DNA of 33,642 bases from a virus (Duplodnaviria > Heunggongvirae > Uroviricota > Caudoviricetes): IMG/VR virus record IMGVR_UViG_2880412407_000012; one strand, written 5' to 3'. This document shows, in pieces, positions 1 through 6,000 of the stretch. Made by a program: the position numbers. Every line of letters begins with the position of its first letter. Positions within the stretch are counted from its first letter, which is position 1.

Positions 1-3000
1 ATGGCGCTGTCTGATGCGTGGTTGCGTTCAGTCGTTGGAAAGGAACGTGATAAGGTTTTGGTTAAATCCGATCGTGATGGTCTGTCTGTCAGAGTATCAC
101 CGAAAGGTCGCGTAGTGTTCCAATATCGTTATCAATGGGCAGGGAAAGGTGAGCGTCTTGATATCGGAACTTACCCGGCAACTGGATTAAAAGAGGCCAG
201 AGAAGAAGTTATCCGTCTCCGTGGTGAACTCGAGTCAAACCGTAATCCACGATTGGTCAAGCAGGCTGAAAAACGAAAAGCTACTGAAGCCATGACGGTA
301 GAGTCTGTGATCCGTGCCTGGTATGAAGCATATTGTGTAAAAAATAAAAAGGGTTCTGAACAGATACTCCGCTCGTTTGAGCTGCACCTGTTCTCTAAAA
401 TCGGGAATATCCCTCACGATGCAGCTACATTGCATGATTGGTTAGAAGTCTTGGAGCCTCTTAGCACTAAGACTCCAGCAATAGCAGACCGATTGCTAAT
501 TAACGCAAAGCAGGCCCATGTCTGGGCGTATAAGAGAAAGCTTATTGAAACTCGCCCGCTGTCGGATATCACGGGTAAAGATATGGATATCCGTAAAGGT
601 CAGAAGAAACGGTTTCTGACACACGATGAAATTAAAATTCTTTATGCTGCGATCGATGGCTCTAGAATGGTTCCCAAATACCGGGCCTTCATTAAACTAT
701 TACTGCATTTTGGTTGCCGTAGTTCGGAGCTAATTACTGCTAGGGTGGATGATTTTGATTTCATAAATAAGGTATGGACTGTACCGCCAGAACGACATAA
801 GACAGGGGATATAACAGGCGAACCGCTAAAGCGCCCCATTATTGAACCGGTTGAAGAGCTTATAAAGTACGTTATCTCTATGAACAATGGTTCCGATATG
901 CTTTTTACTAAGGAAGGAAGCAGGGAGCCCGTTGGACGGACATCATTGCAGTCGCTGCCTTACAATTTAATGCAGTACGCATGGCGGCGTTTGGGGTATC
1001 AATTCCCTCATTGGTCTCTTCATGATTTGAGACGAACAGCACGAACAAACTTTTCTGATCTTACTGCGCCTCATATTGCAGAAATAATGCTCGGTCATAA
1101 ACTGCCAGGGGTATGGCAGGTTTATGACAAGAGCGATTATTTAGAAGAACAGCGTAAAGCTTACCAGGCGTGGTGGGAGAGGGTTGAATCGATAGTTACT
1201 TGTACTTGTTCAGACTAGAACTGACATTTTGCATAGGCAGAACGCAATTATGCATATTGCGGTATAATCCCCTTCTTAAAACTGTAAGAATTGCTTGCTA
1301 ATCCTTGCAGTTTTTGATTATAACATTTTTATTTGTTTATTAGGATTTTTGATGGAACTGTTACAGGAACACGGGGCGATACTTAAAGTTGTAATCATGC
1401 CTACTACTGGGGAACAAACCATAATCCAAGGTTTCGATACTGGCCTCCTCAACCCAGAGATATCCAACATTCTTTTTTTATTGGCCAAAACACCAAAAGA
1501 AATTAGTGAGATTTTTGTCAATGAAAATGATAACTTTCAGCCTACTCTAAGCGGGCTAAATCCTATTTTTTTAATATCTAAAGAAAATCTTGAAAAAATA
1601 CCAAATATTTATCAAACGCCATTTTGCTTAATTTTTTGTGCTAAAGAAGATTTTTCGTATGTTTGTGCTTTAAAAAAACATTTTGCTATACCACCTATAA
1701 TTTGTTGCAATTCTAAACGCGCTGATCAACCACTTAATAAGATTAATAGTATATACTCATTTGATAAGGTGCTCTTCTCTCGGTTGAAATTCATTGAGGA
1801 TAAAATAAGAAAAAATCACAGTGAAAAGAAAATATCAACGAAGTTGAAGCGAAGAGGGGCTTTATTTAATAAATCACCTTGGAGATCGACGCTTAACAAT
1901 TCAACACTACCCAATGAGTTGTTAATTGAATCACTTGGCTATATGCTATCTCCACCAAAAAGAATTAAAGATGGTAGTAGCAAAAGAGAGTTTATAGAAA
2001 TAATACTTCATAGCGTTGATGCATACACCGAATGTTTAAAGGAATTAGATATACCACTTCCAACGGAAGTCTTACTTTTTGCTCCGGGTATGCACTCTTT
2101 TTTATATGATAAAATAATGACTTTTATGAGTTAATAACGGAAAATTTATCCACAATTGAGAAAAAATTCCTTATTGATGGAGTGTTGAGGAATCCTGGCT
2201 ATTCTGGAATTAGACTTGATATAAATTCAGATAGAAAAGAACTTTTTAAAAGTCCTGCTTTCCGTTACCTCACCTCACTAAGACGCGCTGAAATGCGATT
2301 AACAACAGCTGCGATTACTTTATTTAGCATAAATAAAAAAATCCCAGCAATAAGATTGCCAAATGCAATAAATCATTACTCCAATTATTTGAAAAATCTT
2401 GAAGATCTTGCAACTTCTTCTGGGATAAATAGTGAAGCATTCATCACTAAATCTAAAGCATTCAATACTGTTATTCGAAGAGCCCTTGGTTGCAAGTTGA
2501 GAACATATATAAGAAAAAACTATAGCGATTTGTCCTTTGTTTGTGATGTACCATTGGATTGGATTAGGTTTAATAACATACCTATAATGTTCAGTCATGA
2601 GATATCAAGAATAAATGCTACGCCTGGTAACGTTCTTCTACAGAGCGCCTCTGCTTTTCCGCGCGTTTTAGTAAAAGCATCTGAGTTGAGAAAGGTTTTA
2701 GTTATACGTTCTTTTGAGCCTGATGATCACTTAAAGTTCATATTAGAGAACGCAATTGAGATATTTAAAAAACAGATGCCAGATCTTGATTGCGAGATTA
2801 TTGATGTTAGATCGAAAGCTGAGTTTATTGATGCTCTAAATCAATATCAAGGTCATATTCTTGTTATGGATTGTCATGGAAACCATGATGGCAATGGGAG
2901 TCATGGATGGTTAATAATAGGTGAGGATAAAGTGGACACTTGGAGTTTGAGAAAAATAGCAAGAATTCCTCCTATCGTAATTCTGAGTGCATGTTTAACA

Positions 3001-6000
3001 TCTGCCCTAAGCGGTTCTCATGCCTCTGTTGCTAATGGCTTCGTTATAAGTGGTGCATTAAGTGTCATCGGAACATTACTGCCAGTAAATGCGATAGACT
3101 CTGCTGTGTTTGTAAGTCGGTTGATCTACCGGTTTTACGAGTTTCCTTCGACGCTATCTACAAATTTTACACATGTTAATGTAAGGCTTTTTCTTTCTGT
3201 TTTTCTTAGGATGTCCTATGCAAGCGATTTAATACGAGGATTTTTATCTGAAGATTTGATACCGAATAATTCATGGAGGAAAGATGCAGTTGATATTAAC
3301 ATGTATATAAACATGCTTCACCATGATTGGTATGATTATGTAATTAACAAATTGACGATGTTAACGGGGCTCACGAAAAAAGATGTACTTGATTTTATCG
3401 ATAGAAAATTATTCATAACCGAAACTATGTGCTATAGCCAAATTGGATTTCCAGATGCAATCACAATTAGTCTTAAAGATTGACAACTGTATGTAATAAA
3501 TATGGCATACTTCCGGCACAGAGCGAATATAACAGATCAGGTTTAGCTCTGTGCCATAGGTGTACCAACTCTCATCTGAGCTAATGCTCGTTACTCAATA
3601 ACTCCTGCAAATTTGTAAATCTTGCGTGATTCCCATTTATTTGGGCATGATTTAATATCAGGATCTGGAAAGTCTGGCCTGTATTTCTGGCCAGTTCTCC
3701 TGTTTACGCTGTTCCAGCGAAGAACGGTCGATACTGAAACGCCACAGAAGTCGGCGACTTGTTTAGTTGTCATTAAGTTGTTCATTACTTCACCTCCTGC
3801 GGTGGCTCCGGTAGCGGCATCCAGTGGGTTACTTTCGATGCCGGTTCTTCCCCATCGTCAGTAACTGCCCACCATTTGTTTCTCGACCAATCGTAATACC
3901 CTTCGAAGGTATCGCACTCAGTCCAGCCGTAAGACTTACCCCAACACCAAACATACTGTTTATCGTCCGGCATTCGCTCACTACAGCTTATCCAACCATC
4001 CGGAGTTACCAGAGAGTTGCCCGACAGCTCGTTCAACTTGTAAGTCTGGCTTACAGGTTCGGCACCATGAAGCATGGCGGCGCGGCAGGCGTTCCAGCCT
4101 TCATCAAAACCGACTATGCCATTATTTAAAGACGGACGAACATCTGGCACCATCGGCACTGGCTTGGCTATATATAGCGGCTGAACATACCAGCCCTTTG
4201 ATAACCAACTGTCAGCAATGTTTTTACTCCGTGTTATTGCCGGAATACCTAAGCCATTGTCTGAATGCAGCCATGCCACCGGTTCTGCTTCCAGCGATAC
4301 CAAAGCAATTTCATAAGCACGGCGCTCAATATTGTCTCGCACATCCAGACTGCCTATGCGCTCTTTGATTTCTTTAATCAGTTCTTTGTCGGTAAATGTG
4401 GTCATTATGCCCCTGCCTCCGGTGCCTTTGGTATTACTGCCCAGTGAGTGATATTGACGTTTTCAAGATCCCCGACCTGAAATGTCCACTGCCATTCTCC
4501 GGTTTCCTTTTGTCCCCAGGTGTACCAGAGAGAACGCCAGCCAATCAGCCAGCCTTCTCCGTTAGCATCAAATAACAGAACACTTTCATTTGCAGGTGGC
4601 AATTCAGCTGACACTGGTATTATTTTGTTTTCCAGTGCCGCACATTTAGCTTCAAGCGCGTCGAATTTACGTACTAGGTACTCAGCATTTGTTTCGTTCA
4701 CTTTCAGATCTCGCGGTACACATTTCCCGCGAAGAAACCCTTCCATTTCGAAAACATTCATGCGCATTTGCGTAACTCCGATAACTCGTTAAAACGTTCC
4801 ATAAACATCCCGTAGGCATGACCTGGAGACAGTGGAATAACTTTGAACATCTCTGTTGCCGGGATACCTTCCAATACAGGCCAGAAAGAGCCATCATCAA
4901 GTCCGAGATCGCGGCGTTCGGTTGCCAGCATAATGAGATCGGCATATTTCACTGGCGTGCTCATAACAGGAGGTAACCCGTATTTCTCACGGATTACGGC
5001 GTCTATTTTTTCTTCCATCCGTTTATAGTCAGGAAGAAGTCGTTTCAGTGGTGCGGGGATGTCCTGGCAATACGTTTCTGTTGCATCATGCATTAACGCT
5101 TCAAAAGCAAATTCCTGCGGCACCAGTTGGCTGCAAAGCACTGCATGCTGGGCGACACTGTAGAAGTGTGAAAGATGTCCTGCAAAGCGACAGATATTTG
5201 AAAGGGAAACCGCGATATCGTTAATCACGATGTCGTCTTTATTTATCTTGTCATAATAAAAATGCTTCCCGGAAAAAGTTTTAATAAATGACATTTTGTT
5301 CTCCACGTATATGCGCTGCACCGCGCAGAATTTTGGTTAAAGAAAACCCTCGCCATCAGGCGATTATTGAGTCAATTATGTTTCCATAAATGCCCCCGCA
5401 GGGGCATTTGCAGTAAGGAAATCAGGCGGTAAAAGTACCAATAAAGGTTTCTACTTTGCTGTCTTTGAATTTCTCAACAAGCAGATCACGAAATTCGTTA
5501 GCCATTTCTTCCTGCACTGCTCCTCATCATATCGACCCTGCAAGGTCGGTTGGTTTCTCCACAAAACAGAGAAGAACACCTGCGGTGGCATCCGCCCGGG
5601 TGGATTGGGTTATGAGCCCGTCGTCCGGTGATGCTCTTCTCTGTTTTGTAAAAAGAGCGGTACCAGCCGGAAGAAAGTGTACAAACTGGTACCGCCAAAG
5701 CAGTGGCTGTTGTGGTGGGGTTGTCACTCAGGCGTATGGTCAACCTGACAATCCGGTGTCCTCAACGGGGAAAGAGTAACCCCGCCATACTTACCGCCGC
5801 GCCATTTCGCGGATTACCACAACGCTGAGAGCACTTAGCCAGTTACGGCACCACACTTTGTCGCGGCTCCATAAATGCCCTCATCGTTGCACCCTGGTCT
5901 CTTCCCAGGCGTCAAACCGGATCGCCACGCTGGTTAGGCGTCTTATCAGCATCATCATTGACTTGCACATTCCGGCTACCTGGTTTGTTTGCCCGAGCAA

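Follow-up and report, generated by a model that had tools for sequence, protein, structure and literature searches.

Organization of the integrase-adjacent region

The window, the whole 33,642 nt stretch of viral DNA analysed here, matches a decayed prophage of Escherichia coli O121 strain RM8352 with 100% identity; this prophage contains three insertions of the IS3 family, and its lysis, terminase and tail genes are truncated. Two plus-strand open reading frames (ORFs) follow the integrase gene int, which ends at position 1218: ORF1 (1352–2134, 260 aa), which starts 133 nt downstream of the int stop, and ORF2 (2182–3483, 433 aa). A preliminary description had read this pair as AT-rich, integrase-proximal cargo closed by a hairpin and facing a convergent xis-like gene, and this anatomy is borne out by coordinates and composition alike, with a GC content of 34.4% in 1219–3590 versus 45.1% in int and 49.1% in the rest of the window. 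The features of the region, named according to the assignments made below, are as follows:

1–1218, plus strand: tyrosine integrase gene of the prophage (Pfam Phage_integrase, Arm-DNA-bind_3 and Phage_int_M; RefSeq WP_001218283.1)
1219–1351, plus strand: bovA upstream region with the presumed native promoter and ribosome-binding site (identity with the cloned Borvo fragment)
1352–2134, plus strand: bovA 5′ fragment, BovA codons 1–253, then 7 codons out of frame (IMTFMS*) before the stop
2107–2110, plus strand: A4 tract, site of a 1-nt deletion (A5 in intact alleles; pairwise alignment with NZ_CP193495.1 and genome survey)
2113–3483, plus strand: 3′ part of bovA, read in the shifted frame and covering codons 254–710 (PADLOC BovA positions 286–715; frame open from 2113)
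2527–3480, plus strand: CHAT (caspase/separase-fold) protease region, approximately residues 393–710
2875–2877 and 2992–2994, plus strand: codons of His509 and Cys548, respectively
3516–3555, no strand assigned: perfect inverted repeat (10-bp stem, 20-nt loop) separating the convergent genes bovA and xis (fold z = −4.1)
3591–3785, minus strand: excisionase-like helix-turn-helix (HTH) gene, the first of the convergent early-left operon (sub-cut-off HTH hits; cdtI annotation)

Upstream of bovA, a TATAAT hexamer at approximately 1263–1268 and an AGGA motif 6 nt before the ATG can be read from the sequence. A consensus promoter scan yielded fewer promoter-like sites than in shuffled sequences and called no promoter upstream of bovA, and the presumed native promoter is placed within 1219–1351 only by way of the published native-promoter clone described below. 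At the other end, positions 3516–3525 pair perfectly with 3546–3555, and the 107-nt stretch around this hairpin folds at −33.8 kcal/mol, a stability that none of 200 shuffled sequences reached. The stem is therefore real, but no T-run follows it on either strand and it is not among the calls of the terminator scan, so it was rejected as a recognizable intrinsic terminator and any terminator role is putative. The gene at 3591–3785 encodes a 64-aa protein whose matches to HTH_17, HTH_23 and MerR fall below Pfam cut-offs; its equivalent in phage cdtI (orf34) is annotated as an excisionase, in agreement with the xis-like gene of the preliminary description.

Identification of a single gene, bovA

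ORF1 and ORF2 both match the PADLOC BovA model PDLC03831, at positions 3–263 (E = 8.8e-49) and 286–715 (E = 2.5e-183), respectively, although the pair had initially been reported to match no named system. Rather than two genes, they are successive pieces of a single one, bovA, of 710 codons. At the same position, 23 of the 32 complete E. coli genomes that carry the locus, as well as phages cdtI and Ayreon, feature a single 2133-nt coding sequence. Of the 34 homologues found, which include proteins from Pantoea, Dickeya, Proteus and Serratia, 30 are single polypeptides of 698–722 aa. The neighbours of these homologues vary case by case, with ICE tra genes in some, which indicates that a conserved partner gene is absent.

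BovA is the sole component of Borvo, a system named and verified since 2022 and thus already known: Table S2 (row SG178) of Millman et al. 2022 (bioRxiv 10.1101/2022.05.11.491447) lists it as verified, from E. coli 403116, with a BovA of 710 aa and a CHAT protease. It was cloned as a 2569-bp fragment (Millman et al. 2022, bioRxiv 10.1101/2022.05.11.491447) and expressed in the published plasmid from its native promoter. Our comparison with the 403116 clone covers the first 399 nt and the first 399 aa, as printed in Table S2; over these spans, window positions 1218–1616 are identical to the start of the clone with 0 mismatches, and the frame-repaired window protein matches 403116 BovA at 397/399 residues. 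As judged from these sequences, the Borvo type system was cloned from the very locus seen in the window.

A lineage-specific frameshift splits the window allele

Alignment with the intact allele of NZ_CP193495.1 showed that an A5 tract is reduced to A4 at 2107–2110, which shifts the frame after Lys253 and leads to a stop at 2132–2134. With A4 in place of A5, the window does not encode the single uninterrupted protein of approximately 700 aa. ORF1 is therefore residues 1–253 of BovA, and not a separate partner protein: the earlier suggestion that it acts as a sensor, toxin or substrate under the control of a protease encoded by ORF2 does not hold.

Among the 32 complete E. coli genomes surveyed, A4 occurs in nine and A5 in 23, with no mixture. 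Five of the A4 carriers are named as O121 and the other four are CDC strains whose records give no serotype; the split allele is lineage-specific. We considered a homopolymer sequencing error and rejected it, as nine independent complete assemblies agree on A4, and one of these matches the window without a difference over 33.6 kb. Because 23/32 genomes, cdtI and Ayreon have an uninterrupted bovA, the window copy belongs to Borvo as a disrupted member rather than to a separate family. Once repaired, it differs by only 2–4 substitutions from intact alleles; this, together with its intact CHAT region and catalytic residues, indicates that the frameshift is recent and that fragments might still be made. 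Translation of the 3′ ORF could begin at GTG 2182 (the mechanical start, residue 278) or ATG 2293 (the PGAP start, residue 315), but inspection by eye revealed no convincing Shine–Dalgarno sequence before either.

Protein architecture and catalytic site

The caspase-type motifs noted in ORF2 were all located, with KVLVIRSF, ILVMDCHGNHDG and PPIVILSACLTSALSG beginning at ORF2 residues 171, 226 and 263, respectively. The last two fall within a Pfam CHAT match (ORF2 residues 211–315, 27.6 bits against a cut-off of 24), so the window copy retains a CHAT domain with a catalytic His/Cys dyad. Overall, BovA consists of an N-terminal flavodoxin-like alpha/beta region (approximately residues 1–250), a helical middle (approximately 300–390) and a C-terminal CHAT protease of caspase/separase fold, with His509 and Cys548 as predicted catalytic residues. 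Pfam detected no SAVED or other domain in BovA besides CHAT, and ORF1 gave zero Pfam matches. A sequence search of the PDB with both ORFs returned zero matches at E ≤ 1, with no BovA structure in the searched copy.

Function of Borvo and fate of the window allele

The near-identical Borvo of 403116 protects via abortive infection, and its trigger was studied by Stokar-Avihail et al. (bioRxiv 10.1101/2022.08.27.505566): expression of a phage DNA polymerase alone suffices for Borvo toxicity, and T5, SECphi4 and SECphi18 escape Borvo through mutations in the polymerase proofreading cleft. Papers from 2024–2026 call the Borvo mechanism ‘poorly understood’ or ‘unknown’. Our literature search on its mechanism, substrates and structure returned only surveys and the trigger study, and no description of BovA protease activity or substrates was found in the literature searched. 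The preliminary description was thus right to propose integrase-adjacent prophage cargo encoding an anti-phage, abortive-infection system, but that system had already been described. Intact bovA lies between int and xis in cdtI and Ayreon and is also cargo of ICE-like elements in other Enterobacterales, and both settings fit a role in superinfection exclusion.

We assign a probability of about 0.9 to the reading that 1219–3590 is a frameshift-inactivated copy of bovA, the single gene of Borvo, and that a lambdoid prophage of the cdtI/Ayreon type carries it between int and xis as lysogenic-conversion cargo. In intact BovA, the parts of the protein outside the protease would restrain the CHAT domain, and sensing of the polymerase, or of something that its activity produces, would release it; the protease could then cleave host or phage targets, and growth would stop. 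In the window, the lost A leaves an N-terminal stub of 260 aa and a 3′ ORF that is no longer tethered to it. Residues 254–277 are missing from this ORF and no ribosome-binding site is evident for it; most probably, therefore, the locus no longer functions and is a remnant, fixed in carrier genomes, inside a decaying prophage.

By comparison, the split allele is unlikely to have remained functional as a defence, whether through non-covalent assembly of the stub and CHAT fragment or through the freed CHAT domain acting alone under altered regulation. Apart from the frameshift, neither ORF is damaged and the catalytic His and Cys are retained, and a 67%-identical homologue in Salmonella Javiana has been split independently, approximately 20 codons downstream, through what the family consensus suggests was a T6 to T5 change. 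Were the split allele active, the Salmonella break would mark a natural domain boundary and Borvo could be regarded as a two-piece sensor and protease. However, bovA contains 23 homopolymer runs of ≥5 nt, four of them within codons 240–285, so two independent slips in this stretch are unsurprising (a chance of about 1 in 6) and the Salmonella split was dismissed as a non-significant sign of a preferred break point. Furthermore, residues 254–277 are missing from both split products, and the full-length model places the break in a block with pLDDT 84–88, outside the low-confidence stretch at 281–300. The lack of a clear ribosome-binding site before either start of the 3′ ORF, an IS600 insertion in the bovA 3′ fragment of one A4 carrier and the predominance of single-polypeptide homologues also speak against a working split protein. 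That the fragments cooperate, or that the untethered CHAT domain has a changed, perhaps dampened, activity, seems quite improbable.

Alternatively, slippage on the A4 allele could yield full-length BovA at low levels, either during translation (a −1 ribosomal shift at GAT-AAA-A) or during transcription, and the defence would then be dampened or phase-variable. Lys codons within A-runs are slip-prone, and trace amounts of full-length BovA may be made, because a −1 shift on this Lys codon would restore the wild-type reading (...DKNND...). We nevertheless regard such a defence as very improbable, since the tract has only four As without a canonical X-XXY-YYZ heptamer, and the strict division between nine A4 carriers and 23 A5 genomes disfavours reversible phase variation. 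Almost no probability attaches to the original proposal of an undescribed two-gene module. Two ORFs are indeed present, RefSeq annotates the O121 copies as two coding sequences (‘hypothetical protein’ and ‘CHAT domain-containing protein’) and ORF1 has no Pfam match, but both ORFs align in order to one BovA profile, and likewise to the undivided 710-aa proteins that most other genomes encode, and Borvo has been named and verified since 2022.

With the window copy read as disrupted bovA, a plating test would most probably show no phenotype for this allele, because the gene is broken in this strain. The main value of the analysis is a correction: an apparently new two-gene caspase-like module is the published single-gene Borvo, split at a homopolymer. 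Automatic defence-system counts may score O121 genomes as Borvo-positive despite the broken gene, because the 3′ fragment alone scores E = 2.5e-183 on the BovA profile. To the mechanism of Borvo, the window adds only a confident structural model of BovA.

Comparison with other CHAT and caspase-like systems

BovA shares 12–14% identity with Csx29/TPR-CHAT of the type III-E CRISPR Craspase (PDB 7y9x_B, 7y83_D and 7zoq_A), whose N-terminus consists of TPRs, in contrast to the flavodoxin-like alpha/beta region of BovA. Annotation of the whole window revealed no cas genes, the window has no Cas7-11/gRAMP, Csx30 or CRISPR array, and Craspase is triggered by target RNA whereas BovA responds to phage DNA polymerase. 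Identity is 11–12% to separase (PDB 5mz6, 5u1t and 9hvy) and gingipains (4ief and 4rbm), which are a eukaryotic cohesin protease and secreted virulence proteases, respectively, and have neither context nor regulators (securin, pro-domains) in common with BovA. Unlike SAVED-CHAT (PDB 8tl0), BovA has no SAVED domain and no neighbouring cyclic-oligonucleotide synthase (CD-NTase), and unlike the caspase-like proteases of gasdermin operons, it has no gasdermin neighbour and is a stand-alone gene flanked by int and xis. The closest relative is the Borvo of 403116, which shares the locus, the 399-nt upstream and 5′ identity and the CHAT protease, in an int–bovA–xis position also found in cdtI and Ayreon. 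The window allele differs from it by the loss of 1 nt, which breaks the 710-codon gene in two after codon 253, and its substitutions include R388, at a position occupied by S in the intact alleles compared.

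ORFs between the integrase and xis-like genes

The ORFs, AT-richness, motifs and hairpin reported beside int in the preliminary description were all recovered by the ORF list, GC content, Pfam search and folding. The ORF list for this region comprises:

1..1218, + strand, int
1352..2134, + strand, ORF1, 260 aa from ATG
2182..3483, + strand, ORF2, 433 aa from GTG
3591..3785, − strand, convergent HTH ORF of 64 aa

GC content is 34.4% across 1219-3590, compared with 45.1% in int and 49.1% in the remaining window. The three motifs start at ORF2 residues 171, 226 and 263, and a Pfam CHAT match at residues 211-315 (27.6 bits; cut-off 24 bits) spans the last two. 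The hairpin arms GGCACAGAGC (3516-3525) and GCTCTGTGCC (3546-3555) pair, and the 107-nt stretch around them has a folding energy of -33.8 kcal/mol (z = -4.1); no T-run follows the stem, and the hairpin (3516-3555) was absent from the terminator-scan list.

A single bovA gene split by a frameshift

ORF1 and ORF2 match the same PADLOC-DB model, BovA (720 positions), at positions 3-263 (E = 8.8e-49) and 286-715 (E = 2.5e-183), respectively. At the same site, an O103 strain carries a single 2133-nt CDS (WP_044722728.1, annotated 'CHAT domain-containing protein') and O121 strain RM8352 carries two CDS. Base-by-base alignment of the intact and window alleles identified three substitutions and a sole indel, AAAAA versus AAAA at window 2107-2110. 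This 1-nt deletion shifts the frame after Lys253 to read IMTFMS before a stop at 2132-2134; the original bovA frame is open from 2113 (NNDFYELITENL...) through to the normal stop at 3483, and inserting one A into the window allele gives a 710-aa protein again. ORF1 and ORF2 are therefore one gene, and the proposed two-gene module does not stand.

Identity with the Borvo system

In Millman et al. (bioRxiv 10.1101/2022.05.11.491447), the Table S2 entry SG178 is 'Borvo', a verified system from E. coli 403116, whose 2569 bp clone contains one gene, BovA, a 'CHAT protease' of 710 aa. The 399 nt printed for this clone match window 1218..1616 with zero mismatches, so the clone would cover window 1218..3785, and the repaired window protein differs from the 399 printed BovA residues at two positions (Q126L and R388S). 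The locus is thus the published Borvo system and not, as previously supposed, an undescribed one.

Borvo from E. coli 403116 acts by abortive infection, where low-MOI cultures survive and high-MOI cultures collapse or arrest (Stokar-Avihail et al., bioRxiv 10.1101/2022.08.27.505566). The same study found that SECphi4 DNA polymerase expressed alone is toxic to cells with Borvo, and that missense mutations in the DNA polymerase proofreading cleft let T5, SECphi4 and SECphi18 escape. The literature therefore shows that the intact allele causes abortive infection and that phage DNA polymerase suffices to trigger it, which bears out the earlier guess at a defence function. Later papers still term the mechanism poorly understood or unknown; a literature search found no paper on BovA substrate or structure, and a PDB sequence search returned no BovA entry.

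Structure model and proposed mechanism

An AlphaFold2 model of intact BovA, built from a 32-sequence alignment, was confident (mean pLDDT 86.5, pTM 0.88). Every aligned sequence has C508-H509-G510 and S546-A547-C548, which come after model strands 503-508 and 542-546. The modelled His/Cys layout is the caspase arrangement recognised from sequence alone, and the protease assignment was correct. The frameshift site lies inside a block of pLDDT 84-88, outside the low-confidence stretch 281-300.

BovA thus has a CHAT fold and a conserved catalytic dyad. The N-terminal and helical parts may hold the protease off before sensing, and the sensed cue could be the polymerase itself or an effect of its exonuclease/DNA interaction. 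The protease would then cleave targets, leading to cell arrest, such that a lysogen would exclude other phages.

Distribution and status of the split allele

Among 5426 complete E. coli genomes, 32 contain the region at ≥99% identity, and a 121-nt probe across the deletion site separated their alleles cleanly. Nine share the window allele (A4; probe 100% identical): RM8352, 16-9255, FWSEC0006, GTVSS-020, 2002-3211 and four CDC 2014C/2015C strains. The records of the four CDC strains lack a serotype, and the other five carry the label O121 or O121:H19. With A4 shared by nine independently assembled complete genomes, a read error is ruled out. The other 23 genomes have the additional base and one CHAT CDS; among them are strains of O103 and O145:H28 and isolates from humans, chickens, a pig, an otter and a beluga whale. 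Phages cdtI and Ayreon also carry intact bovA (99.5% identity), with the order int orf32, bovA orf33 and excisionase orf34 in cdtI. In O121 strain GTVSS-020 (NZ_CP176678.1), the frameshifted bovA additionally has IS600 in its 3' fragment (locus 1870..3026), leaving a 335-aa CHAT remnant.

We infer that the window allele is inactive (probability about 0.85-0.9), because the N-terminal 253 residues are no longer joined to the protease, residues 254-277 are missing, no Shine-Dalgarno is visible before the candidate restarts (GTG 2182 or ATG 2293) and one carrier later gained an IS within the fragment. The catalytic half is undamaged and the allele is otherwise just 2-4 substitutions away from working ones, which leaves two alternatives: continued expression of the fragments, which we regard as unlikely, and rare -1 slippage at GAT-AAA-A that would restore the wild-type reading, which is more improbable still.

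The surrounding prophage

The window corresponds to RM8352 chromosome 5325884-5359525 (100% identity), where the prophage adjoins yjjG. This prophage is visibly decaying and carries three IS3-family insertions: IS600 at 21130..22286, an element at 23414..24627 after a truncated lysozyme gene, and another at 27379..28556 linking the stub of a terminase small-subunit gene with that of a tail-tip gene, a junction that indicates deletion of most of the morphogenesis region. A second frameshifted gene, with an HTH domain, lies at 9172..9989 (PGAP flag 'frameshifted'). Two overlapping ORFs at 14573..16034 (−) of 182 and 308 aa (WP_001131907.1 and WP_000868396.1), antisense to the late operon and flanked by antiterminator Q and a DNA methyltransferase, have no Pfam or PADLOC match and are a possible uncharacterised two-gene accessory insert. 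At 17752..17984 and 18154..18585, phage-borne tRNA-Ile and tRNA-Arg precede a small TerB-family gene with only a marginal PADLOC match (PDC-S48, E = 0.0016). At the right end (31641..33642), T3SS effector cargo of one NleG-family and two DUF1076 genes comes after lom and tail-fibre genes.

The BovA family

A protein search with intact BovA returned 34 relatives, 30 of them single polypeptides of 698-722 aa, with identity down to ~30%, from Pantoea, Dickeya, Proteus, Serratia and metagenomes. A short match of 439 aa from Salmonella Javiana is also a split copy: the ORF upstream of it terminates in ...QDEKNF*, at a point where the consensus of the family goes on FLINGV, and back-translating that consensus suggests a T6 to T5 deletion. 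This frameshift is independent and ~20 codons 3' of the E. coli break. Intact bovA contains 23 homopolymers of ≥5 nt, four within codons 240-285, so two nearby splits lend, at most, weak support to a preferred site of breakage. The Javiana homologue (GCA_007348675.1, locus 3180..5320; 67% identical) lies beside a P4-like primase gene, and its sole annotation is a hypothetical protein of 439 aa.

The window copy of this already known system is most likely a lineage-specific pseudogene. Temperate phages and ICEs carry bovA as a stand-alone gene. Both relatives checked for context stand alone amid ICE-type transfer genes, with neighbours that differ between them. These varied neighbours indicate that no partner gene is conserved in the family, in keeping with the definition of Borvo as a single-gene system.
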